Source: Promethearchaeota archaeon
GTDB lineage: Archaea; Asgardarchaeota; Lokiarchaeia; Sigyniarchaeales; SOKP01
NCBI GenBank assembly: GCA_029838195.1
Contig: JALGVJ010000007.1
Location: 79,260-143,259 of the forward strand
Reading direction: 5' to 3'
Length of the DNA stretch: 64,000 nucleotides
Shown here piece by piece: positions 8,095 to 43,856 of this stretch; within the stretch, counting starts at the first letter, position 1; each line of letters begins with the position of its first letter. The notes beneath the pieces are model-generated. The model was given only the letters and a program-made list of their open reading frames with translations, was not told the origin of the DNA and ran no database searches. Position numbers and translations under genes: made by a program.

Positions 8095-9510
8095 TTAAAG
8101 AGCTGGACGCTTATCTTGCCACGGTGCTAACTTTTCGAATGCTCTGGAAACTTGAAGCACCAGTAAATCTTGAAAACGATTACCGATTATTTGCATGCCA
8201 ATAGGTAATCCTTCTTTTGACCAGCCACAGGGAATGGATGCAGCAGGCAACCATGTAAGATTTAAGGGAAAAGAAAAGGCCTGCCAAGCTGTTGGAGAGA
8301 CATTTTTTCCATTGATTTGAGGGGGAAACATCAGCCCTAATTTGAATGCAGGAATGGCAGTCATCGGAGTTATGAGAATATCAATTTCTTTAAAAATTTG
8401 ATAAAAGGTTTTATATATTTCTTTTCTCTGATTTAGCGCTCGCATTATGGCCATTCCATCATAGCCTAATCCAGCCTCTACCAATTTAATTAATTCCGGA
8501 TCTAATTTATCTCGCCATTCATTAAGCTTAGGTTTTAAATCATAAGCTAACATTGACGTCCAAAGGGTATAAAAACATAATTCCGGTTTTCGTAATTTCA
8601 TCTTAATCTCTTCTACAGTCCAGTTCAATTGTTCCAATTTTTTTACTGAATTCAATACGGCTTCTTTAACTTCCTCATCTACGACTTTAGCATATCCTAA
8701 ATTCATGGAAAATCCAATCTTAAGCTTTTTGGGTGTTTCTTCAATTTTATCGAAATAGTTGATGGGATCGGCCGGAAGAGAATATCTATCTCCGTGATGA
8801 GATCCTTTCATGGCATCTAACATGAGAGCTGCATCTTTCACGTATCTGACGATGGGGCCAATGTGAGAGAGCGTGTGTCCCATGAAATAAACACTGGGAT
8901 AAACGGAAACACGCCCGAAACTTGGTTTTAGACCATATAGTCCACAGAAACAAGCAGGGATTCGAATAGAGCCTCCTCCGTCTGAACCTTGTGCCAAAGG
9001 ACTCATTCCTGCAGCTACGGCAGAGGCGGCCCCACCACTGGAGCCTCCAGAAGTACGAGTAAGATCCCATGGATTTTTCGTTGTTCCAAATAGATAATTA
9101 TCTGTGACTCCTTTAAATCCAAATTCTGGCGTGTTGGTTTTTCCTAGTAGTACGATACCCGCATCTTTTAACCGAGAAACATAAACCGTATCTTCCGTTG
9201 GCATAAAATTTTCATAAATTTTTGATCCAAAAGTAGTTCGTATTCCTTTTGTCAAGGCCAAATCCTTAATTGATGTGGGGATTCCGTTGAGGATTCCAAT
9301 TTTTTCTCCCTTTTTTACTTTTTCATCCGCAGTTTTAGCCATTTCTCTTGCCAAATCGAAAGTTGGAGTACAATAGGAATTCAAAAGGGGATTATATTTT
9401 TCAATGCGTTCAATGATGATTTCTGTGAGTTCTTGTGACAATAGCTCTTGAGTCTCGATTTTTTCTTTCATTTTCCAAGCGGGTAAAAAACAAATATCTT
9501 CTTTACTCAT
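8095..9510 (-). CDS. amidase signature family enzyme
   Basis: [23 protein letters not shown] and [12 protein letters not shown] catalytic motifs. Confidence 0.93.
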
Positions 9511-9867
9511 TTACTTTTTTTTCCTCCATTTTTTAATATTATGGGAGAATGATAATTGACCGAGAAGTTTTTAGATTTATAGTATTAAGCACGTCTTCGC
9601 TTAAAAATATCATGTAGTTAAATCTAAATTATTTAGAAATTATTTAAATTTACGCATAAATATTCCAATCAATTACGTGCATAAATTTTATTAGAAAGCG
9701 AAAGATTTCTGGTGATTAACTTTTTGTTTTAAAATTAACGAAAATTTAAAAAATAAAAAAAATTCTTTACAAACTAAAGTTCGCTTCTAATCACTAAAAT
9801 TTTTTCCTTTAATTATAAGATGGATTATATCAAGGGAAAAAGAAAATAAATAAATCTTCAACTGCTT

Positions 9868-12800
9868 TTATAAAGGAACATGTAATCGCGCTTTAATTTT
9901 CACGGGTCCTATTAGCCCAGAAGGCATTAAGTTTTTTTTCTTGTGTTGTTTCCAATCTTTTCCACCTTTCTTGCCATATCCCGTAAGCCTATTTCGCAAG
10001 GTGGGTGTTATTTCAATTTTTATTATATTTTTACCTATTTTAATAGCTTTTGTTATATCTACTTCATATGGATACACTAATAATGTTTCCACTTCTTTTT
10101 CATTGATGATAATTCTTGCGACATCATGAACTTGATTAATGGATAAATAGACATGATAGTTGGCTTTAAAATAGGCTTCGGATAAATTAAAACTCGTGGT
10201 ATAAATTCCCTTACCGGAGCAATATTTTACTTGCTCAATCTCACGCCAATCTATCAGCGAATTCAATTCGAGCTCGACGAGAGTGAAACTTCCATCCAAG
10301 TTTCTTCGATTTACGGATAAATGCCAATTTTTAAGTTCTATCGGAGGAGGCATGTCCTCTTTTATTTCAATTTTTTTCATTGAGCCATCGCTTAATTTAA
10401 TTTCGTGCATGCTAGCTTTTTCAATGATTCCATATAATTGATCATTTTCTCGAATAAGGTCAATGGGGCTTTGAACGGCATGAATGTATTCTTCTATTCT
10501 TTTAAATTTAATTAAAAATGAACCGTAGGGAGGAAAATGCAAAGCCATTAAAACACCTAATTCTTTAGTATCGTACTGGGCAGCTTTAGAAATATCTCCC
10601 GTCCAAGGATTAAGTATAAAAGGAATTTTCTCTTGTCTTGTAAATAAGGTTGATAATCTTAAAGATTTATTAGTAGAATTTCTCAGGAAATAATAATCCG
10701 CATCATCAGTTACTTTATGAATGAATTGTATTGAATTTTGAGAAGGTTCATATACGATCTGGGGAATTATATTCAATTGTTTAGTTAAATAATCAGAAAT
10801 CTTGATAGTATTCTTGATTAATTGAACGTTGGGAAGTTTAACTAATTCATCCATTAGAGAGGAGATCTTTGCATCGTTTTCCTTATGATTTAAGAAGCCT
10901 GGCTGTCGTGAGGGAAGAGCCTCTAAAAATAAAAGGTTTATTCCCTTATCGGCAATTTCTTCTAATTTTTTGGCTAATTCAAGGGAAATAGACTTAATAT
11001 TTGGAAGGATGAGGACTTTAACGGTAGTAGCTCCGATTTTTAAGAATTCATTCTCAATTTTCGCATTTAATAGGCTTTCTTCATTTACGTGAAAATAATA
11101 ATAGCCATTAAAAACCAGATCGTCTCCAAGCTCTTGTAATGAATGCGTCCACTTTTCCTCAGTATCCCATTTCTCTTTTTTTTTAGGATATGCATCGATC
11201 TGATTCTTGGCTTTTAGAGCATCGTTCTCATCTAAATATCCCCCAACTAATTCTTCATTTTTTAAAACGGTATCCGGGTAATTCCGGATTGAATAATAAA
11301 TGGCTACATCACAAACCGTTTTTCCTCGCTGCATTACTAATTGACAGCGAGTAATGTATTGATTCATGGCTGGAAAAAATTCCCAGAAGGGATTCATTCT
11401 ACTGAAATTAGAAGAAAAAGTCATTAATTTCGGAACATGCGGCGTGGAAAATGCGCAATACCCCGGGTATGGAAATGAAGGATGTTGATAAGGGAATCCA
11501 TGATAGATCATCTGATTAATTCCGGCAATAAAAAGCCTATCTGCCCCAACTTTCCATTTTAATGGCGTGGTCATATAATCCCGCTGATTCCACACGAGCG
11601 ATTCGGCCGAGACAATGGGAGATTCATGAATGATCCCCGCCGAACCCGCGAGTTTTAGAAAATCGATGACACCTCCCCCATAAAGCTGTTCGGTTTCTGG
11701 AATGTGTGCTCTTCCGTAAGCTTTAAGAGTGTCTGCTCGAATTCCGTAGGCTTGAATTCTACTTTTCACGTTATTTTTATCTGCCCATTGTTTTATGATT
11801 TCCAAAAATTCTTCGGTGAAAAGATCCGATATCGTGAGTTCATAATCATATCTAATGCGCTTCCCTATATCCGTATCTTTGAAATCAAAAGCTGGAGGGG
11901 AGATTCCAAAAAACACGTGAAGATATTTGTTATCTCTATTAGGAACGAAACAAAGGGGTAAAAAGGGCGTTAAATCATAGCCTCTTCTCTTATAAAATTG
12001 CTCTAGAAAGTCATCTGACCATAACCAATCAGAACTTAATTCTAAACTGTCAGTAAAGAAAGCTCTCAAAGTTTTTCCAAAATATTTTCCATAATACTTT
12101 TTACCAATTCCAAAATGAGCCTCTAAATGATATTTAATAGCTTCCGCAGAGAGATGGTCCAATACCAGACTGTCTCCTTCAGATGAGGAACGACAATCTC
12201 CTAAAGGTTTAGTTCCGGAAGGCCCCTTATAAAAAGCAAAAACTTGCCATCTGCCTTCAGGAACTTCCCATTCAAAAAATCCCTCCTCATCTACTAATTT
12301 AGTTAGATTAATTAATGAATCTTTCTTTAAGTAAGCGGTTTTTACATTTCTATATTTTATCTTCCCCCTCTTTCCCACCGGTTGAGCAGCCATTAATGCT
12401 TCCAATTTCATATCGTTTTTAAAGAACTCTGCCACTTTAGTGCCTACAAGGATTTTGAAGAGAGGTTGGAGCTTATAAAATAAGGGTTTTTTAAATTTTG
12501 GAATCTTGCCTCTATAGAGTTTAGGCCCCTTGATTGTTTTTTCTCCCACGAGTAAGACTTTTAATGATTTCTCTTTCGTAATATGAGTGCCCCCGGCTGG
12601 CCAAGAAGAGCCAATTGTTAAATCTATTACCATTTCCCTTTTTGATGCCTCTTCGAGTAAAGCTTTAATCATTTCATGGTAATAAGGTTGCATGAATCTA
12701 TGTGTTCGCTTGAGCCTTTCCTCATCCATTTTTTTTGGAGAGCCAATTAAAAAAGCTTGAATTTCTGCTCCATAAAAACCTGCCTCATCGAGTTCTCGTA

Positions 12801-31355: not shown

Positions 31356-31709
31356 TTATTTTAATCGAAAACGATATTTATTATTGGCTGCTCTCGATAA
31401 TCCAATATAATTGTCCGATATCTTATAATGCATTTCGCCTCCAATTATTTTTTTTTCCACGTAAGCATTAGTTATATCATGATTTAACGAGTGAAACATG
31501 GTTCCCAATGTTACCGGCCCTAAATAATTCCTCTCTCCCTTTTTCTTGGCAATTCTTACTAATTCTGTTTCAGAATGCCACGCACCATCTAATAATGCGA
31601 AAATTAAATCATTTTTTATATTGCTTTTTATATTTTTAAGTTTTTGAAATAAATTCGAATAATTTCCATCAATATTAGCATTTTCCTCTAAATTTTTAAT
31701 ATTTTCCAT
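31356..31709 (-). CDS. small putative winged-helix protein
   Basis: LIFALLDGAWHSETELVRIA...VEKKIIGGEMHYKI helix-helix-helix-wing layout; SD-like GAGGT upstream. Mostly synonymous divergence from its duplicate supports coding. Confidence 0.7.
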   Translation of the reverse strand: MENIKNLEENANIDGNYSNLFQKLKNIKSNIKNDLIFALLDGAWHSETELVRIAKKKGERNYLGPVTLGTMFHSLNHDITNAYVEKKIIGGEMHYKISDNYIGLSRAANNKYRFRLK

Positions 31710-31852: not shown

Positions 31853-33001
31853 TTACTCTTTTACTAAATCTTCAGGTATTCCTTCATTATAATATTTAGA
31901 TCTCGTAATCCACTTTTGCGCAAATTCCGGAAGGATGCTCAGAATGGAGCCGCCAATCCACACGGAAAAGGTACGCTCTCTAGGAGCAATGATTTTTAGA
32001 TTTTGACTTAATTTTTTATCCCGCATCATTTTTAACTCTAACTCTTGATAGAGCCGTGCTTTTAAATTCTGAAATAAAGAACCGCCCCCAGAAAGAAATA
32101 TATTATTTAAAAGTTCCGGACGTAAATCTACATCGCATGAATTAATAGCATCCATGATTGCAACATGAAGAGGAGGATCTTCCATTTGCATTAAAGAAGG
32201 ATCAAATAATAATTCAGGAATCATGAATCGCTCTTTAGAGAGAGTAAAAATCGAACCATCGGGTAAAGAAAATTTCTTTTTGTATTGTTCACTACGTTTT
32301 AAATCTTGTTTAAAATCTAAAGAAACAAAACTTGCTTTTTCCTTGAGCACGCGCACCAGATCCCGTTGGATGGAAGAATCTACAGAAAGTCCAATCGTTT
32401 TTGAAAGAATATTTTCAGCATGGCGAGTAATGGCACGCCCTCCAACTTTTGAAATGCGAATCGAATGGGTGATTTTATAACTCTTGTAAATCGGAACGAT
32501 TCGAGTACTGCTATCCCCAATTTCAACAACTAATCCCGTCTGAAAGCCACCAGAATATAACGTGAGTAAGGAATCTAACACCGGATAAAATGCCATGCAC
32601 TGATATTTTTCCAAGAAAATTTCAAATAGTCTTTGGAGGTCATTCTTGGGAAATAAAGGGTGAATCGCAAACAATATGTTAAACATCGTAGGATCGATTT
32701 TCAGGTTAAAAAAGATATAATCTAATAATAATTGGAAATGATCCCAATTTGTAATTTTCCCATTATTAATGGGATAAGTGATTTTAAATAACCCTAAGGA
32801 TTGAATTTCATCTCCTACATAATATTGTTGATTTTTGGAGCCATACTCTGCTTGAATATCATGATATTTTGGATGGCCAACAATAGAAGGAAACACTAAT
32901 GAGGGAAAATCCTCAGCAGCAAAACCTGCCTTAGTAGAAAATTGACCAATGTCCAATACGATAGTTAGGGTCGTCATGGTTTCATCACGATTTTCAATCA
33001 T
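31853..33001 (-). CDS. actin-family protein (divergent Asgard actin / ARP-like)
   Basis: IVLDIG...KAGFAAEDFPSLVFPSIVGHPK, YVGDE, LKEK, LPDG, ERFMIPELLFDP, CDVDLR, LSGGGSLF and ERTFSVWIGGSILS. Confidence 0.95.
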   Translation of the reverse strand: MIENRDETMTTLTIVLDIGQFSTKAGFAAEDFPSLVFPSIVGHPKYHDIQAEYGSKNQQYYVGDEIQSLGLFKITYPINNGKITNWDHFQLLLDYIFFNLKIDPTMFNILFAIHPLFPKNDLQRLFEIFLEKYQCMAFYPVLDSLLTLYSGGFQTGLVVEIGDSSTRIVPIYKSYKITHSIRISKVGGRAITRHAENILSKTIGLSVDSSIQRDLVRVLKEKASFVSLDFKQDLKRSEQYKKKFSLPDGSIFTLSKERFMIPELLFDPSLMQMEDPPLHVAIMDAINSCDVDLRPELLNNIFLSGGGSLFQNLKARLYQELELKMMRDKKLSQNLKIIAPRERTFSVWIGGSILSILPEFAQKWITRSKYYNEGIPEDLVKE

Positions 33002-33100: not shown

Positions 33101-33838
33101 CTAGATCAATAAAATTTTCAATGGAGTATATGTCGTTTCGGGAATATAAGCTTCGCCATATGCTTTGCCAATTTCATTCCCCCGCAAAATTGCTGTATCT
33201 TCTGCCCAATCTAAGACTCTTTCTAATACCTCCTTTTGAGAGACATAAACTTGATTAAAGATTTCCTTTTTTCGTTCCCAATATTGTTCGATATCCACGA
33301 TTATAAAAACAGAGCTTTCTATATATTGGAATTTACAAGAGGGTGATTCATAATAATATACTCCAAACGGTTTCCAAGATCTTCCATGTCCTCCGTACGC
33401 TTTTCCCGTAGAACAATGATAAATGCTTTCTCGCACGATTAAAGATAAATTTCTATGAACTCTATGAAAATCCGTAAAATGGGGAATTAAAACCACTTGA
33501 GGTTTTCTCTCTCTAATTAAATTGGTAATTCTATCTATTTTATTTCTATTAATTAACAAATCAGAATAACCTAATTCAACAATTTCAGTATTTAAAATAT
33601 CAGACACCAATTTTAATTCACTTTCTCTTGTTTCAATGATGCTCTTTTGTTGATTTGATTTCGCATACCCTCCCAGTCCTGGAGTAGCAATTACAATGAT
33701 AACTTCCGTACCGAGTGCTTGATATTTTAAAATTGTACCCCCACAGGAGATCAACTCGTCATCCGGATGTCCGGCAAAGATCATCATTTTTTTTGGGATT
33801 ACAATGGGAATTTCCTCTTCACACATGATTGTGTTCAT
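33101..33838 (-). CDS. PIG-L/LmbE family N-acetylglucosaminyl deacetylase
   Basis: GHPDDELISCGGT, RESE and DFHRVH motifs. Confidence 0.88.
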   Translation of the reverse strand: MNTIMCEEEIPIVIPKKMMIFAGHPDDELISCGGTILKYQALGTEVIIVIATPGLGGYAKSNQQKSIIETRESELKLVSDILNTEIVELGYSDLLINRNKIDRITNLIRERKPQVVLIPHFTDFHRVHRNLSLIVRESIYHCSTGKAYGGHGRSWKPFGVYYYESPSCKFQYIESSVFIIVDIEQYWERKKEIFNQVYVSQKEVLERVLDWAEDTAILRGNEIGKAYGEAYIPETTYTPLKILLI

Positions 33839-33993: not shown

Positions 33994-35550
33994 TTGGGTT
34001 TATCAATAGTTGATCGATACATTTTTAATTCCATTTGGAATATAAAAAAACTTTATCAAAAAAAAGAGGAACTTCTAATGGCATTAATAAAAAATATAGA
34101 TCAAGAAAAATTACGGGAGAATGCTATAAAGATACCGAAACCTAGTGAGTTCAAGGAGCCTGCTAATATCACGGTTGAATTTTTATCCGTGGCCTTCACG
34201 CGCTTGATCGCGGCTGCTCTTTTCATCCTTTCTGGAATGATTTCCTTATTAGTATTTGGACCAGGTGTGGGCCACCATCAAACGCGATATGGAAATGCGA
34301 TATTCTTGGGTGGACCATCTTTTTTTTACGTGACAGGCTTGCCCGTGTTGATGATCGGAATAGGGTTATTGATTTATTTCATTTTTAGCATTTTCAAGGG
34401 AACATTCTCCAGCTCTGACCATTTTTTATATTTTCAAGAAATACGCCCCCGCTTGCCCCGTTTTACAGAAGTTCCCAAAAATAAAATAGAAGCCTTAAGA
34501 TTCCAGAATAATCAATTAGGGCCAAAATTAACGTGGATAATCATTCTTACTCCCTTTATCGTACTTCAATTACTCACGGGAATACCGTTATTTACAGCAG
34601 AAAGAGCCGCACCCGCCCACGTGTTATCTTGGACTTTTCTCATCATTTCCATTTTAGAAATCATGGCCGTGTATATTCTCGTCATGCATCCTCAAGCATA
34701 TTTTGAATTCGCCAGCGATGAAAAATTGCATGAAATGTGGTTCGCTCCCAGGAAAATGGATGAATTGATGGGAAAATTTCAAGCTTTGTTTAATCTTTCA
34801 ATACCTTCAAAAGAACAGGAAAACCGTCCGGAATTTGCTCCAATTAACGATACTCATATCAGCCTCTTCAGAGTCATCTTGGGAATTTTTTTAGTAGCCT
34901 CTACTTTAATCATGATGTTAGGAATGGTTCTATTCGGCTCTCTTTTCTGGTGGCTAGGATTAATCTATGGAGTTATATTACTTGTAAAAGCAAGATTTCA
35001 CGATTTCAGTGATCCCCATACTGATAAATTTTTCTTCAATGAGCAAGAACGGATATTCAAGTTCTATAAAAAATTCAAGAATAAATTTCACTACATCCTT
35101 GCAACTGATGTTAATTCTGTAAAATTAACACGATGGTTTAGAAGATTAGATTTTTTTGACGTGGGACTCATTGGTGGAATGCTTGTCTCTCTCATATTCT
35201 TACAAGTCGAAGGATGGAAAATTGCAGATTCCACGATCGCCATTCGGGATAATGTTATCAGCACTATTTACATGGGTATTTTAATCTTCTTATTATTCGT
35301 GTTTCTTTGCGTGCCCATTGATGTCGTCGAATTTAAAACGCCAACCATTACCTATCGAATAGAAACTACCCTCAAATCCAAGTCTAAAAAACATTTTCAC
35401 CACTTCCTTGAAGATTTAAAAACGTTACATATCATGCTGAGAGAGCCTCAATTTAAAAGGACATTCCTTCTTCGAATCACCATCATTGGAATTCTCTTGC
35501 TAATAGGACTCAGTTGTAGCTTGATAGAGTTTGATTTTTATCTATTTTAA
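33994..35550 (+). CDS. uncharacterised polytopic membrane protein (likely start ATG 34078)
   Basis: About 9 hydrophobic segments alternating with beta-rich soluble segments; apparent two-fold internal repeat. Confidence 0.7.
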   Translation: MGLSIVDRYIFNSIWNIKKLYQKKEELLMALIKNIDQEKLRENAIKIPKPSEFKEPANITVEFLSVAFTRLIAAALFILSGMISLLVFGPGVGHHQTRYGNAIFLGGPSFFYVTGLPVLMIGIGLLIYFIFSIFKGTFSSSDHFLYFQEIRPRLPRFTEVPKNKIEALRFQNNQLGPKLTWIIILTPFIVLQLLTGIPLFTAERAAPAHVLSWTFLIISILEIMAVYILVMHPQAYFEFASDEKLHEMWFAPRKMDELMGKFQALFNLSIPSKEQENRPEFAPINDTHISLFRVILGIFLVASTLIMMLGMVLFGSLFWWLGLIYGVILLVKARFHDFSDPHTDKFFFNEQERIFKFYKKFKNKFHYILATDVNSVKLTRWFRRLDFFDVGLIGGMLVSLIFLQVEGWKIADSTIAIRDNVISTIYMGILIFLLFVFLCVPIDVVEFKTPTITYRIETTLKSKSKKHFHHFLEDLKTLHIMLREPQFKRTFLLRITIIGILLLIGLSCSLIEFDFYLF

Positions 35551-35586
35551 TTACAAATATTATAATTTGAAAATTGATACATCTAG

Positions 35587-37206
35587 GTGGAAGAATTGAG
35601 AATTAGAAAAAGAAAAACCTTACCAAGACGGAATGCGCTTGTGGTCGTTCTATTTTTCATCCCCGTTCTCTGCGTTTTATCCTATTTAGGACTGTTCATG
35701 TATATTTTATACGATATCTCTTCCTATAACCTCGAAATGCCCCCTCCTAAAACGGAATATTTCTACGATTTGAATGAAATTAATGAAAATACGCTAGATA
35801 AATTAGCCCATACCTATGAATATCAATTAAAATACCATCATTCCCCGGCCTACATTCCTGTCGATGTAACCTTTAAGGATTCTACATATACTTCAATTGA
35901 TTATTGGCACGGAACAGATAATGGGGCTTTACATCTTGGATATGCCCTCGCAGCCGAGTGCCACAGATATAAAGCCGCTTTAAGAGAAGGCGATATAGCT
36001 GAAGCTAATAGAGCCCTCATCATGGTAGAGCGATTTGTAACCGGTTTTAGCTACATGCTAGCAGCGCCAAACGGAGGCATCGGTCCTGATTATCCAGGAA
36101 CACCTGCCCGATTTGTTTGTTCTCCCGAAAACCGAAAGTATCATCCATTCATTTTTGAAGAGCATCCTCGTCATTTCAATGGCACGGGAGAATATAAAGA
36201 TTGGCGAGTGCGATTATATACGTCCCGGGATGAAATTGCCGGTTATTACTTGGGATTTGCTTCCGTATTGAGTTGCATTGATCCTGAACTAAACGAAGAT
36301 AGTAAATGGTGCGTCGATAGGATAAAATTGTTGACAGCTCAACTAATCGAAGGTTTCAAGAATACAAATTGGTTGGTCTTGGGAGGAGAAGGCGAGCCAG
36401 TGGGTTCTGATTTAAATACTTATCTCACGGGAAGCACGTGGCAATTGGCTCTCTTGAGAATCGGTGCCACTGCATATCCAGAAAAATATGAATCCTTATA
36501 TCAATATTGTGCCGCAAAGACGTTATCAGCCAAAAACGCAAATATGGGAAGTCTCAGTAACACCTTATACGATACATATGCTCTTGCCTTTAGCATGGAC
36601 GTAATGTACTCATTAATAATTTTAGAAGATGATCCGGGTTTGCGATATTATTACATTAAGAGTTTTGAAAATGGTTTTTATAATTTCGTGCGATATCATC
36701 GAAATGCATATTTTAATATCATTCATCTCATTTTCATGGAATTATTAAGTGAGTCCGAGCGAGTTGAATTTAATCACGAGGAATACAATGATGATATGGT
36801 AAGATGGGATGTTTTAGATCAATTGTGGCGATTTCAAGCCTCTGGATGGGATGATGGCGTGCGAAATTTAAATTTAAGGCGACGTCCTCATTCGACTCGT
36901 TGGAGCAGCGAGAATCCTGATATTCGGCGGATGGAGAAATTTCCAAGGAGAGATTATTGGGCGAATTTTTTCGAAAATAATAGCATCGGAAACATGTATT
37001 TGGGGATAAAAGACGAATTTGGGTTCGATAAAGAAATGTATAAATATCCGCTAACCATATCGGAATGTGCTCCTCATTATTTTTTATGGGAGCATTCGAA
37101 ATTTTTTGGAATGGGGGCAGATATTCATGGAAATGGTTTGACGCAAGCAGTACCTACGTCGTTTTTAACGGTCTATTGGATGGCGCGAGCGTTTGATATC
37201 ATTTAA
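35587..37206 (+). CDS. membrane-anchored hypothetical protein, probably an alpha-helical toroid enzyme
   Basis: Basic N-terminus followed by one TM helix and a large aromatic-rich helical domain (DNGALHLG, SRDEIAGYYLG). Confidence 0.6.
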   Translation: MEELRIRKRKTLPRRNALVVVLFFIPVLCVLSYLGLFMYILYDISSYNLEMPPPKTEYFYDLNEINENTLDKLAHTYEYQLKYHHSPAYIPVDVTFKDSTYTSIDYWHGTDNGALHLGYALAAECHRYKAALREGDIAEANRALIMVERFVTGFSYMLAAPNGGIGPDYPGTPARFVCSPENRKYHPFIFEEHPRHFNGTGEYKDWRVRLYTSRDEIAGYYLGFASVLSCIDPELNEDSKWCVDRIKLLTAQLIEGFKNTNWLVLGGEGEPVGSDLNTYLTGSTWQLALLRIGATAYPEKYESLYQYCAAKTLSAKNANMGSLSNTLYDTYALAFSMDVMYSLIILEDDPGLRYYYIKSFENGFYNFVRYHRNAYFNIIHLIFMELLSESERVEFNHEEYNDDMVRWDVLDQLWRFQASGWDDGVRNLNLRRRPHSTRWSSENPDIRRMEKFPRRDYWANFFENNSIGNMYLGIKDEFGFDKEMYKYPLTISECAPHYFLWEHSKFFGMGADIHGNGLTQAVPTSFLTVYWMARAFDII

Positions 37207-37353
37207 AAAAAGAATTTAAAAAAACCTTAAATAACTTCCTTTTTTTTTCATTTTCATTTTCATTTTTTATAAATTTATAAGATTTTTGTAATAAAATTTT
37301 TAATTTTTCAAAAGTTTCCTTATTTAAATGAATAAATTTTAATAGAAATTAAA

Positions 37354-38796
37354 TTGGATAAAAAAAATTTAATTTTAACTGCCAGTGGCATTCGGGGAAT
37401 TGCTCATGAAAGTTTAACAATTGATTTTGTGAAAAAATTAGCATGGGCGTTCGGAACGTGGTTAAAGAATGAAGAAAAAACGGTCGTGATCGGAAGAGAT
37501 ACCAGGATTAGCGGAAAACCCTTTGAAGATGCCATTATTGAAGGGTTAACAATAGCACGATGTAAAATTATTAATTTAGGAATCTGCCCGACACCAATCA
37601 TTATTTTTTCTAAGAATCAGTTAAATATAGCCGCAGGCATGATAATCTCCGGATCTCACAATCCCCCAGAATGGAATGGAATAAAATTGCTTCATGGTTT
37701 TACTTTCATTGATGAAAATGAGTTAAATCAAATCATGAATTTAATGGAAAACCATTCATTAAATGCCAATTCGCTGGATTTAAAAAAAAAAGATAAATGG
37801 GTGGTGGAACATTATAATCCAATCCCAGAATACGTGCGTTGGTTATACTTGCATGTGGACGTGAATGAAATTAAGCAAAAAAATCACCTTAAAGTTGCCA
37901 TTGATACCGGAGCTGGGGCAGGAAAACTTATCACCCCCCAATTATTAACCGATTTAGGTTGCGAAGTAATCAAGATCAATAATGAATTCGTGAACGGTAC
38001 CGAATTTCCCCGTAATCAAGAACCCATTGCTAAGAATCTTCAAGAATTGATCGTGAAGGTCATGACTGAAAAATGCGACGTTGGATTTGCCCATGATTGC
38101 GATGCTGATAGATTGGCGATAATTGGAGAGGATGGCACGTGGTACCCCGAAGATACGGGACTCGCCATTATTGCTAACCATTATTTAAAAAATTCTCAAG
38201 AACCTACAAGGAAAATCTTTGTTACAAATCTGGCCTCTTCTATGATGTTTGATGTGATTGCAGAAAAATATGATGCTGAATTAATAAGAACTCCCGTTGG
38301 AGAAAGACATTTAGCCGCAAAAATGCAAGAATTATTGGATAAATACAAAAACGAGCCACACCCCATCTTGATTTTCGGAGGAGAAGGGTCGTGTGGAGGA
38401 ATTATGTTTCCCCCTTTCAATAATGCCCGTGATGGAATCTTTGCCACCGCAAAACTAATTGAAATCTTGACTAAAACGGGTAAATCCATGACTGAACTCG
38501 TGTCCGAATTGCCTAAATTCTATTCCTATAGACAAGTTCTTGAAATAAATAGCACGAAAATCCACCAATTAATACACGAATTAAAAAGTGAGCTCGTGAA
38601 AGAAGGTGAAGATGTGTCTCAACATGGTCTCGATCTTCGCTTCGGAAAAGATAAAGAATGGTTCGTCCTTATCCATCCTTCTAATACCGAACCCGTGATT
38701 AGAGTGATTGCCGAGGCAAAAAGAGAATCACTTGCTCGATTATATTGTGAAACCACCACGGAATTATTAAAAATAATTAATTCTCGTTTAAATTAG
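37354..38796 (+). CDS. phosphohexomutase (phosphoglucosamine/phosphomannomutase)
   Basis: SGIRG, GRDTR, SGSHNP, DCDADR and PSNTEPVIRV. Confidence 0.93.
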   Translation: MDKKNLILTASGIRGIAHESLTIDFVKKLAWAFGTWLKNEEKTVVIGRDTRISGKPFEDAIIEGLTIARCKIINLGICPTPIIIFSKNQLNIAAGMIISGSHNPPEWNGIKLLHGFTFIDENELNQIMNLMENHSLNANSLDLKKKDKWVVEHYNPIPEYVRWLYLHVDVNEIKQKNHLKVAIDTGAGAGKLITPQLLTDLGCEVIKINNEFVNGTEFPRNQEPIAKNLQELIVKVMTEKCDVGFAHDCDADRLAIIGEDGTWYPEDTGLAIIANHYLKNSQEPTRKIFVTNLASSMMFDVIAEKYDAELIRTPVGERHLAAKMQELLDKYKNEPHPILIFGGEGSCGGIMFPPFNNARDGIFATAKLIEILTKTGKSMTELVSELPKFYSYRQVLEINSTKIHQLIHELKSELVKEGEDVSQHGLDLRFGKDKEWFVLIHPSNTEPVIRVIAEAKRESLARLYCETTTELLKIINSRLN

Positions 38797-38863: not shown

Positions 38864-39628
38864 TCATTCTCCTCTCATTATCTTTTTAAGACGATTCAAT
38901 TCTTCTAACATTTCATCCCTTAAAGAACTTAAACTTCCTCCCGCTTGAGTTGCGCCGGGTGCTGGGGTTACTGCTCCCGGAGGTTTTACTCCTGGTGGGC
39001 CCACAGCGGGAGATTTTGGCGGTCCTGCTGAAGGGGGCTTAGGAGGACTCGTTGCGGAGGGGGCTGCCACGGGCGCCTTTGGAGGAGCTGAAACAGGTGA
39101 TTTAGGTGGTGATGGTGCTGGTGGTCCTGCAGAAGGAGGCTTTGGTGGTCCTGCAGAAGGGGGCTTTGGTGGCCCTGCTGAAGGGGGCTTTGGTGGCCCT
39201 GCAGAAGGGGGCTTTGGTGGCCCTGCGGTTGGAGGTTTGGGAGGCCCCACAACGGGAGATTTTGGCGGTCCTGCTGAAGGAGGCATAGAAGGCCCTTCTT
39301 TTGAAGAGGGAGTTCCAAGTCCAGTAATGAGTGGATTACTTGAAGCTTTCGTAGCAGCTTCTCCACCTCCACTTAATAAATTAAAAAGAGTGCTTGCAGC
39401 TTTTGTTTTAGCTTCTTGAGGTGGTGCTAAGATTTGAGCCGAGGAGCTACTGACAGTCTGTACAGCTTCTTCAGCGGAGATACCTTTTAAATCTTTTTGA
39501 GCTTTATTTATGGATTCGATAAAGTCATTTATGTTTTTGACAGTTTCTTCCAGATCATCAGCCAGTGAGCTAAGTCCTTTTTTTAGAAATGTTAGAACGC
39601 GATTAATTTTTTTTTTCTCAGAGACCAT
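38864..39628 (-). CDS. coiled-coil / proline-rich repeat / C-terminal amphipathic-helix protein
   Basis: N-terminal heptads, SAGPPKPP-type repeats, C-terminal SLRDEMLEELNRLKKI; GGAGG SD-like motif upstream. Confidence 0.85.
   Translation of the reverse strand: MVSEKKKINRVLTFLKKGLSSLADDLEETVKNINDFIESINKAQKDLKGISAEEAVQTVSSSSAQILAPPQEAKTKAASTLFNLLSGGGEAATKASSNPLITGLGTPSSKEGPSMPPSAGPPKSPVVGPPKPPTAGPPKPPSAGPPKPPSAGPPKPPSAGPPKPPSAGPPAPSPPKSPVSAPPKAPVAAPSATSPPKPPSAGPPKSPAVGPPGVKPPGAVTPAPGATQAGGSLSSLRDEMLEELNRLKKIMRGE
39120..39287 (-). repeat. about 7 x 24-bp coding tandem repeat (octapeptide K/MPPSAGPP variants)
   Basis: The unit ggtggYcctgcWgaaggRggcttt is repeated, with synonymous differences between units; related units lie at ~38995-39046. 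Confidence 0.9.
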
Positions 39629-40777: not shown

Positions 40778-41050
40778 GTGAGAAATATGGCCAAGAAAGA
40801 ACTGTTCATTAAAAGAGTATACGAGATAGTCAATGAATTAAAAATTCCATTAATAGATGAGCGCGTGTACGATAAAGTGGCATTTGGAGGAAATCCTATT
40901 GCAAGTATCGTCTTTAAATTTGAAGAAGATGAGTCCGTAATTAGAGGTTTTTTAGGTTTAGCAGAATACTTTCATACGGTCGTAATAAAGAAAAAAGATG
41001 ACTTCTTCATTCCTCATAATAACTTGATCTTTCGCTTGATTTCAGCTTAA
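40778..41050 (+). CDS. small hypothetical protein (likely start ATG 40787)
   Basis: Compact alpha/beta-looking ORF followed by a T-rich tract; family not recognised. Confidence 0.65.
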   Translation: MRNMAKKELFIKRVYEIVNELKIPLIDERVYDKVAFGGNPIASIVFKFEEDESVIRGFLGLAEYFHTVVIKKKDDFFIPHNNLIFRLISA

Positions 41051-42212: not shown

Positions 42213-43856
42213 ATGAGGCAGGCGGACAATAAAATCAAGATTTTAATTGAAAAATTTAAAAAATCGCGGGATCTAAACAATAGAATAGAGATTCTAAATG
42301 ATTTATCTAAATTGCAAGAAAAAAACCATTTTCTTGAGTTTAAGAATTTCTACTTGAAAGAATCTTTTTCAGAAATCAAGAGCACGCTCATACCCTTTAT
42401 CATTGAATTTTATCCGGACCAAGGCATGGAATTCTTGGTAAGTCAATATAGACAAGAAAAGGATTGGAAAGTAAGAAATAAGATAATAGAAGCTATTGGA
42501 TTATGTAAAAATAGAAATTCCCTTTTATTTTTAATAGAAGCTTTAAAAGATAATAATGTTGAAAATAAACGATTAGCAATTTCTTTATTAGGACGAATGA
42601 AAGCAGAAGAAGCCTCAGAACCCCTAATATCAATGCTACAACATGGAATGAATGAACTTTATGACGATATAATAAAAGCTATAGTTAACATTGGTAAAAA
42701 AAATAATCTCAAGGCAATTTTAGCTCATATAAACCAAGAAAACATTTACATAAAACGAGCCATTCCTATCATATTAGCACGCTTGAAAGACAAAAGCTCC
42801 CAGCAAATCCTATTAAAATTATTGGAAGATCCCGATAGAGAGGTAAGAAAAAATTCCATTAAAGCATTAGTACATGTTTTAGACCTAAGAAAAATAGGAG
42901 TTCTTTTTAAAAAATTACAAGATGATAATTTAGAAATAAGGAAAGAGACAATAAAAGCTTTAGGAGAATTAGGCTCCTTAAAAGCCATAAAACCCCTTTT
43001 AAAATTATTACTAGATAAGAAATTTGTCATTAGATCTCAAGCCATGAAGGCCCTTACCAAGTTATTTATTAAAGCTAAAACTCATGAAGAACTTTACGAG
43101 GTGTTGGAAAAAAGAAATTTATTAGGACGTCAAAGTGCTATTAAGATTTTAGGCCAAATCGGCTCTCCCGAAGATATAAAAAGATTGTTGCCTTTTTTTA
43201 CGAGTAAAATCCCACAAATCCGGCAAAATGCCTTTAAATCCATTTTAAAAATTGCTCAAAATACTGAATTTAAGGAAGAGAGCTTAGTTTTAATAATTCA
43301 ATCCCTTAATTCGGAAAAATGGCAAATTAGAAAGTATAGTGCTAACTTATTAAGCAAATTAGGCGATGAAAATACAATTGAGGCTTTGTTTGTTTTATTA
43401 GGAGATGATAATAACGAGGTGAGAAAAGCAGCCATTCAAACGTTAGCAACTTTTAGAACCTCTAAAGTTATTGATATTGCGAAGCAATTTTTAACGGATG
43501 ATTCTTGGAAAATGAGACGAGCTGCGGTGAAACTTCTCCTAAAAATAGGAACGGAAGAAGCTCTTTCTCCTTTAATGAATTGCCTTAATGATGATGATAT
43601 TTACGTAAAAAGATGGGCCATAAAAGGATTGGGCAAATTACGTTCTTTTTCAAATCTATCCGCACTTTCAAGGTTATTAAAAGATAAAGATCCAAAAATT
43701 CGTTTATCCGTGGTAAAAGCCTTCGAACAAATAGGGGAAGAAAGTGTCATTCCATATCTCATTGATGCTTTAGGGGATGATGTTTATGAAATTAAACGAG
43801 AAGCTGAAAAAGCCTTGGAAAAAATAGATCCCTTCTGGATTGAAAAATATTTATAA
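42213..43856 (+). CDS. HEAT-repeat (PBS-lyase-like) alpha-solenoid protein
   Basis: Many ~31-aa repeats of the type LxDxDxxVRxxAxxALGxxG. Confidence 0.9.
   Translation: MRQADNKIKILIEKFKKSRDLNNRIEILNDLSKLQEKNHFLEFKNFYLKESFSEIKSTLIPFIIEFYPDQGMEFLVSQYRQEKDWKVRNKIIEAIGLCKNRNSLLFLIEALKDNNVENKRLAISLLGRMKAEEASEPLISMLQHGMNELYDDIIKAIVNIGKKNNLKAILAHINQENIYIKRAIPIILARLKDKSSQQILLKLLEDPDREVRKNSIKALVHVLDLRKIGVLFKKLQDDNLEIRKETIKALGELGSLKAIKPLLKLLLDKKFVIRSQAMKALTKLFIKAKTHEELYEVLEKRNLLGRQSAIKILGQIGSPEDIKRLLPFFTSKIPQIRQNAFKSILKIAQNTEFKEESLVLIIQSLNSEKWQIRKYSANLLSKLGDENTIEALFVLLGDDNNEVRKAAIQTLATFRTSKVIDIAKQFLTDDSWKMRRAAVKLLLKIGTEEALSPLMNCLNDDDIYVKRWAIKGLGKLRSFSNLSALSRLLKDKDPKIRLSVVKAFEQIGEESVIPYLIDALGDDVYEIKREAEKALEKIDPFWIEKYL

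Follow-up and report, generated by a model that had tools for sequence, protein, structure and literature searches.

The 64,000-nucleotide stretch of Promethearchaeota archaeon DNA analysed here (the window) carries a gene, termed gene X, whose product belongs to a real protein family across Asgard archaea in which one of two different front ends is joined through a proline-rich arm to the same C-terminal helix. This layout is probably that of a tether. Judging from sequence patterns, we also propose, as a tentative reading held with less than even confidence, that the tether is anchored and that its end helix docks on Lokiactin. A description of the family was not found in the literature searched. 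Gene X and its modules are arranged as follows.

38864..39628, minus strand: gene X, 254 aa, ATG start, soluble type A member of the pan-Asgard family
39485..39619, minus strand: N-terminal heptad helix of X, aa 4-48, a probable oligomerising coil, type A only
39371..39418, minus strand: short amphipathic middle helix of X, aa 71-86
38963..39310, minus strand: Pro-rich disordered arm of X, aa 107-222, 42% Pro, PP at most
38876..38932, minus strand: near-invariant C-terminal helix of X, aa 233-251, common to types A and B

AlphaFold2, run with 23 homologues, predicted three helices in X (aa 4-48, 71-85 and 233-251) and coil for the remainder, with pLDDT values of 82-95 in blocks of the first and last helices and ~68 in the middle one. 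The first helix has a regular heptad pattern in sequence, with L12, L19, L26, I33, I40 and L47 at position a and L15, L22, T29, F36 and A43 at position d. Residues L81, F82 and L85 are conserved in the middle helix, which is present in type A and absent from the membrane-anchored type B sequences read. The arm contains seven (S/T)AGPP units, and a 24-bp tandem DNA repeat (6.9 copies, 39119-39284) underlies part of it. These results agree with the initial annotation, which had described an N-terminal coil, a short amphipathic helix, about 110 aa of Pro repeats and a terminal helix, whose C-terminal motif reads as quoted there; its caveat that the Pro runs are mostly PP also holds, with no run in X exceeding two. 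Among 120 close homologues the longest Pro run is two in 111, three in eight and four in one, and the motif LPPAPKLPP, lost from the window copy, occurs in 102 of them. A promoter and terminator scan of the locus gave matches at chance level.

A single-sequence search returned 183 homologues of X at E<=0.001, which, where named, are hypothetical proteins of Promethearchaeota and other Asgard bins. A match was found in 36 of 41 relative genomes, essentially as one copy each. The antisense frame in codon register with X is interrupted by stops in 75/75 related loci, with 18 stops in the window copy, and the strand of X is therefore certain. Taken together, the homologues, the presence in relatives and the antisense stops indicate that X is not a chance ORF. 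A profile of X matched 139/251 Asgard genomes, again near single-copy, a count that is a floor given incomplete genomes and divergent front ends.

Distant loci that we read fall into two types, and the arm and tail are the sole parts common to both. Type A proteins consist of a soluble coil and middle helix followed by the Pro-rich arm and tail; they occur in families f1, f2, f4, f5, f6, f11, f15, f22 and f24 and include WEU40329.1 of Odinarchaeum. Type B proteins have one or many transmembrane segments and a helical hairpin with a weak SHOCT score, followed by a Pro-rich arm and the same tail; they occur in families f7, f8, f10 (in part), f16, f18, f19, f25, f28 and f30 and include WXG43242.1 of Atabeyarchaeia. 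Genes of type B usually adjoin two genes that, from their sequences, appear to be rpiA and a PIN-domain ATPase gene. Among the genomes examined, types A and B were never found together. One 71% complete genome, in which neither actin nor Snf7 was matched, contains two tandem multi-pass type B genes of ~560 aa (L112:7289-8959 and 9496-11187). Elsewhere, a single ORF (P0122, L266:412-2061) joins a complete X-like region to a transmembrane segment and a TIR_2 domain; it was seen on one 2.2-kb contig and could be either a genuine fusion or a product of chimeric assembly.

Type A genes are commonly accompanied by a second small gene, Y, which in the source genome's family lies next to a conserved block.

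40787..41050, plus strand: gene Y, 87 aa, no Pfam family, compact alpha/beta model
42213-43856, plus strand: 547-aa HEAT-repeat protein, from a block of genes that the source genome's family keeps upstream of X and Y

The model of Y has a pLDDT of 91. Its best match among PDB structures in a fold search reached Z 4.4 (rmsd 2.8, 56 aligned), Foldseek returned no match at E<=0.001, and comparison with the Atlas gave TM values of 0.65-0.66 to parts of DUF5305 and UPF0182 proteins; none of these matches was clear enough to place Y in a family. Y is present in 71/80 loci of the source genome's family, and its profile matched 91/251 Asgard genomes, comprising type A families and three genomes of f10 that gave no match to X. 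It was not found in the sampled type B families f7, f8, f16, f18, f19, f25, f28 and f30. In 72 of the 82 genomes having both genes, X and Y lie no more than 3.5 kb apart, in divergent (f1), convergent (f6, f15, f22, f24) or tandem (f5) orientation, and the adjacency is mostly broken in f2 and f11. The occurrence of three orientations implies that the adjacency outlived several rearrangements. From this gene context we infer that Y is a functional partner of the type A front end, and it may stand in for the type B membrane anchor. Complex prediction with two copies of X aa 1-95 and Y scored 0.00 in both runs with controls that did not fold, a result that speaks neither for binding nor against it.

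Several Y orthologues (loci L038, L042, L048, L054, L055, L071, L072 and L099) carry an insertion of 27-30 nt with an in-frame stop just after codon 8, and L099 carries a second insertion; the window copy of Y is intact. The inserted sequence folds as a hairpin with flanking bulges, a pattern that would suit a bulge-helix-bulge intron within a protein-coding gene. Many Y orthologues (L021-L100) start with ATT, ATA or ATC behind a GGTG site rather than with ATG, GTG or TTG, so that gene callers miss them.

The tail is the most constrained part of X. Tails of 19 representatives across Asgard families align without gaps, with L236 and M240 invariant and R237, E239, L241, E243, L244, R246, L247 and K248 nearly so, and the core motif is kept in 118/120 close homologues. 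The terminal helix thus proved strongly conserved when its conservation was checked as the initial annotation had proposed. Since the 19-residue helix is invariant on both its hydrophobic and its charged faces, we infer a conserved external partner.

We hypothesize that X is an anchored tether whose front end would fix and cluster the protein, through the membrane in type B and through self-association, probably together with Y, in type A. The Pro-rich arm would act as a spacer rather than as a landing pad for profilin, and the end helix would dock in the groove of a hub conserved across Asgard archaea. Our best guess for this hub is Lokiactin at its subdomain 1/3 cleft, where the helix would dock as does that of arcadin-2 or a WH2 domain and do so without the LKKT strand. 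Clustered tails could then keep monomers of actin, or the ends of its filaments, close to the membrane. Lokiactin fits as the hub because a Lokiactin-type actin was found in 31/32 Asgard genomes searched, matching the breadth of the X family, and the membrane-anchored type B versions favor a membrane tether. More doubtful is the larger proposal that X and its type B counterparts represent an ancestral Asgard actin tether or nucleation/elongation factor, in which a pre-WH2 helix that binds Lokiactin would be carried by a Pro-rich arm on an anchor of oligomeric or membrane type, with Y recruiting the soluble form.

The gene neighborhood adds to the case for an actin partner and also bears on which actin might be meant. 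Downstream of X in the window lie the following genes.

31853..33001, minus strand: divergent actin-related gene (Arp), 382 aa, Pfam Actin E 9e-90
33101..33838, minus strand: PIG-L family deacetylase, in the source genome's family the gene that usually separates X from Arp
33994..38796, plus strand: three genes separating X from PIG-L and Arp, encoding a membrane protein, a 539-aa protein and a phosphomannomutase
31356..31709, minus strand: 117-aa gene, found after Arp in most loci of the source genome's family, no significant Pfam match

The Arp gene begins 5.86 kb downstream of X, in line with the actin gene initially placed about 6 kb away, and its product is 36% identical to the source genome's Lokiactin (C91:22599-23744). 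X precedes Arp on the same strand in 77/80 loci of the source genome's family, which are close kin and not independent, at a median gap of 938 nt; in these 77 loci the two genes are directly adjacent in 19 and separated solely by the PIG-L deacetylase gene in 49. This association with an actin-family gene favors the Lokiactin tether. The three-gene insert of the window was not seen at that place in 80 related loci; relatives of its first gene apparently lie downstream of Arp, as split genes, elsewhere. Outside the source genome's family the X-Arp link weakens to 45 kb in genome G032, where Y also falls within the same 45 kb, and to about 270 kb in L. ossiferum, so that Arp linkage is confined to one family and, loosely, one order. 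The proposed check of linkage to actin therefore came out positive within the source genome's family, and the linkage decays beyond it. That X is a dedicated partner of the neighboring Arp would account for the same-strand linkage and for the cluster in G032. We nevertheless consider this very improbable, because an unrelated deacetylase usually sits between the two genes, three genes break the link in the window itself as does the long distance in L. ossiferum, and the tail persists in lineages whose only actin found was Lokiactin, namely Odinarchaeia, Atabeyarchaeia and seven further families. With a single actin in nine families bearing X-type genes, in the genomes searched, a tail that binds actin must be meant for Lokiactin, and the divergent neighboring actin is not supported as the general partner. 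Against a Lokiactin tether, no well-assembled genome among those checked has X linked to the gene for Lokiactin, and the tail motif was not found in the source genome's five gelsolin-domain proteins.

The initial annotation had read X as a WASP/VASP-like factor with a true WH2 motif and profilin-binding Pro tracts that would deliver profilin-actin. The order of the parts agrees with this, and so does the first half of the helix, in which R237-x-x-M240-L241-x-x-L244 aligns with the R-x-A-L-L-x-x-I helix of the N-WASP WH2 (PDB 2VCP). This likeness also favors the Lokiactin tether; the pattern is short and common, and the Ala position of the WH2 helix is E in 17/19 representatives and A in 2/19. 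Beyond the helix the likeness fails. The Ile-to-Leu spacing is 3 in X versus 6 in N-WASP, whose WH2 has a five-residue Gly linker before the Leu where X has two residues and no Gly; none of the 19 representatives has Gly in the linker, and 0/120 homologues fit a WH2 pattern with a linker of 4-6 residues. The second Lys of the LKK motif claimed at first (position 249) is K in only 10/19 representatives and E, S, R or T elsewhere, position 250 is L, I, F or Y and never T or V, and the helix is predicted by AlphaFold2 to continue unbroken to residue 251. Pfam WH2 (PF02205) gave no match at E<=10 in X, in 25 aligned tails or in the whole genome, a search in which HMMER filters can miss short motifs such as this. 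Searching the PDB with the tail profile returned only SMC3, Lrp1, GCN4 and FliA at E>=0.045 and no actin-binding motif, which, like the Pfam result, also counts against the Lokiactin tether; an Atlas feature search with the tail gave no usable match. The tail may also resemble the F-actin-binding helix of VASP; a PDB search did not return that helix's sequence. No EVH1 domain was matched in Pfam, and the model of X contains no globular domain. X also lacks the acidic tail with Trp that, with a central helix, activates Arp2/3 in WASP/WAVE/WASH factors; it ends three residues past the helix and has no Trp at all. Delivery of profilin is unsupported because the longest Pro run is two in nearly all close homologues, against the five or more prolines per run of profilin-recruiting regions, and because polyproline is reportedly not bound by the profilins of Loki and Odin (10.1101/2020.04.23.051748; PMC9433394). 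Pfam Profilin matched nothing in the source genome and nothing in the controls either, so this search does not bear on the point. On the strength of these sequence features X is not a WH2/WASP protein, and a profilin-actin delivery factor is a highly improbable reading of it. Failure as a WH2 is still compatible with docking in the same cleft, since arcadin-2 binds the groove of crenactin through a linker-separated C-terminal helix with no sequence likeness to WH2 (PMC5173319).

Two further explanations keep the conserved tail and assign it another partner; the initial annotation had already named a MIM1 motif and an oligomerisation helix as alternatives. In one, which we regard as unlikely, the tail serves as a MIM1 of Asgard type for recruiting Vps4 or another MIT protein, and X is an ESCRT adaptor with IST1-like logic whose type B forms are membrane-anchored. 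The six terminal residues ELNRLK are shared with one ESCRT-III of the source genome, and all seven positions conserved across 27 ESCRT-III tails of Asgard archaea (E239, hydrophobic 240, E243, hydrophobic 244, K/R246, L247 and K248) agree with X. The MIM1 pattern of hydrophobic residues at -7, -3 and 0 followed by a basic residue also fits. The source genome has two strong MIT proteins, and an Asgard MIT domain binds both ESCRT-III classes by ITC (PMC7240154). Under a profile built from the same 27 tails, other than the source genome's own, in which the source genome's two true genes rank first and second (27.6 and 22.7 bits), X ranks 13/3646 C-termini; however, at 10.1 bits it is outscored by ten unrelated ones, and in the reverse comparison the X profile places the ESCRT-III tails no higher than 26th and 68th. 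Disagreement is strong at the invariant L236 and L241, whose counterparts in ESCRT-III tails are charged. In genome G075 the distance from X to ESCRT-III is 10 kb, and a 150-aa look-alike lies ~6 kb from an ESCRT cluster in Odinarchaeia, but linkage of X to ESCRT genes was seen in one genus only and in none of the other well-assembled genomes. No Snf7 core was matched in X, and the two Snf7 genes of the source genome lie elsewhere. The tail, by alignment, shares the register of Asgard ESCRT-III tails; the likeness is real, not diagnostic, and because the last ten residues fit those tails about as well, it also weakens the case for Lokiactin.

The other explanation, possible but in our view doubtful, is that the partner of the tail is a conserved hub other than actin or MIT, or that the tail is a short coiled-coil assembly element, X being joined to other tail-bearing proteins in a trafficking or cytoskeletal scaffold. 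The tail forms a clean heptad (d233, d240, a244, d247, a251) with invariant i,i+5 pairs L236-L241 and E243-K248. Two more proteins with a coil, a Pro-rich stretch and a terminal helix are encoded in the source genome (C23:84325-84777, 150 aa; C34:103-675, 190 aa), the first of which occurs in 57/61 genomes of the order and 67/121 Asgard genomes. By eye the tails of both resemble that of X. The tail of the 150-aa protein, however, scored 8.6 under a profile of X tails in a held-out test, below the best reversed-proteome score of 13.3, and gave no BLASTP alignment to X, so that the 150-aa and 190-aa tails are treated as analogues. Stable coiled coils are usually longer than 19 residues, and self-assembly alone rarely fixes one Met, here kept in 19/19 lineages, which argues against a pure assembly element. 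In two relatives, Sec23/24-like proteins (L151:3362-5029, minus strand; L152:3057-4805, plus strand) with a zinc finger, trunk and beta-sandwich contain, after the beta-sandwich, an internal helix closely like the X tail. Such a helix suggests a non-actin hub or a generic motif and counts against the Lokiactin tether; BLASTP detected no orthologue of these proteins in the source genome.

The look-alikes have surroundings of their own. The gene that precedes the 150-aa gene encodes a helical protein of 228 aa whose FCH/F-BAR score is weak (E 7e-4, under the cut-off), as at L166:10326-10778 (150 aa) and L166:11080-11766 (228 aa), both on the minus strand, and the 150-aa gene lies near the ESCRT cluster in Odinarchaeia and in family f24. 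A search of longer proteins with the end of the 150-aa protein found none. The 190-aa protein, with its Pro stretch and similar terminal helix, is placed at a contig end (L167:103-675, plus strand).

Published interaction data for Lokiactin come from L. ossiferum, in which the X locus is annotated on the wrong strand. In the GenBank record of strain B35, the antisense frame UYP44328.1 (NEF87_000613; L205:7368-8240) is called at this locus between UYP44327 and UYP44329, and it is labelled 'collagen-like' in UniRef. Judged by its reading frames, UYP44328.1 is an antisense shadow of X and thus a gene-calling error in the principal cultured model. The true X ORF lies opposite it on the minus strand, at genome position about 729,370-730,180, and several tryptic peptides of 17-32 residues are predicted from it; none of three start variants tried for this ORF was present in the protein collection searched. 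Exact matches to X and to the 150-aa protein of three complete genomes were likewise not obtained with the starts tried. Contigs of four RNA libraries from one study cover the locus, although they are strandless, give no level and may include DNA. Lokiactin co-immunoprecipitation recovered profilin, gelsolins and an Arf, and the identifiers given in that report map in order onto L. ossiferum accessions (10.1101/2025.11.30.690169). As those accessions call the antisense frame, the search database probably lacked X and the experiment probably could not see it, so that the partner list neither supports nor excludes X. GNAMCCOK_00620, which corresponds to X by offset, is absent from the portion of the text examined, which is uninformative given that this gene call is probably antisense. 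By the same offset, Y is tentatively GNAMCCOK_00427, which is abundant.

Asgard cells move and grow protrusions on Lokiactin, for which the known regulators are only profilins and gelsolins (PMC9433394; 10.1101/2025.11.30.690169), and the filament nucleation machinery has been stated to be undiscovered (PMC9433394). A protein that spans the phylum, keeps one docking helix invariant and comes with either of two interchangeable anchors is a good candidate to fill this gap. If the Lokiactin reading is true, X would supply the link from Lokiactin to the membrane that is still missing for Asgard protrusions, and it would have escaped notice through the wrong-strand annotation in the model organism. 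If MIT binding is true instead, X would be a membrane adaptor of the Asgard ESCRT system.

Compared with known systems, X shares with WASP-family proteins (PF02205; 2VCP) a Pro-rich region followed by an R-x-x-hydrophobic-hydrophobic-x-x-hydrophobic helix, but has no Gly linker, no L-basic-basic-T/V, no C-A region, no terminal Trp and no Pfam match. Like Ena/VASP it has a coil, in X a probable oligomerising one, a Pro-rich region and a terminal amphipathic helix, but its coil is N-terminal, and it lacks EVH1 and long Pro runs. With the MIM1-like tails of Asgard ESCRT-III (PMC7240154, PMC8970359) it shares the register of the last ten residues and the Glu four residues before the last Leu, a likeness not above that of the best unrelated C-termini, and differs from them in lacking a Snf7 core and in the extra invariant L236, R237, L241 and hydrophobic 250/251. 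Arcadin-2 of Pyrobaculum (PMC5173319, PDB 5LY3) differs in that its binding has been measured (31 nM) and relies on a Trp that X does not have; no sequence link between the two was seen, and X has in addition an arm rich in Pro and an anchor formed by a coil or by the membrane segments, with actin linkage in one family only. Both proteins are archaeal, both are encoded near an actin-family gene, and both place a small conserved C-terminal helix past a non-conserved linker.
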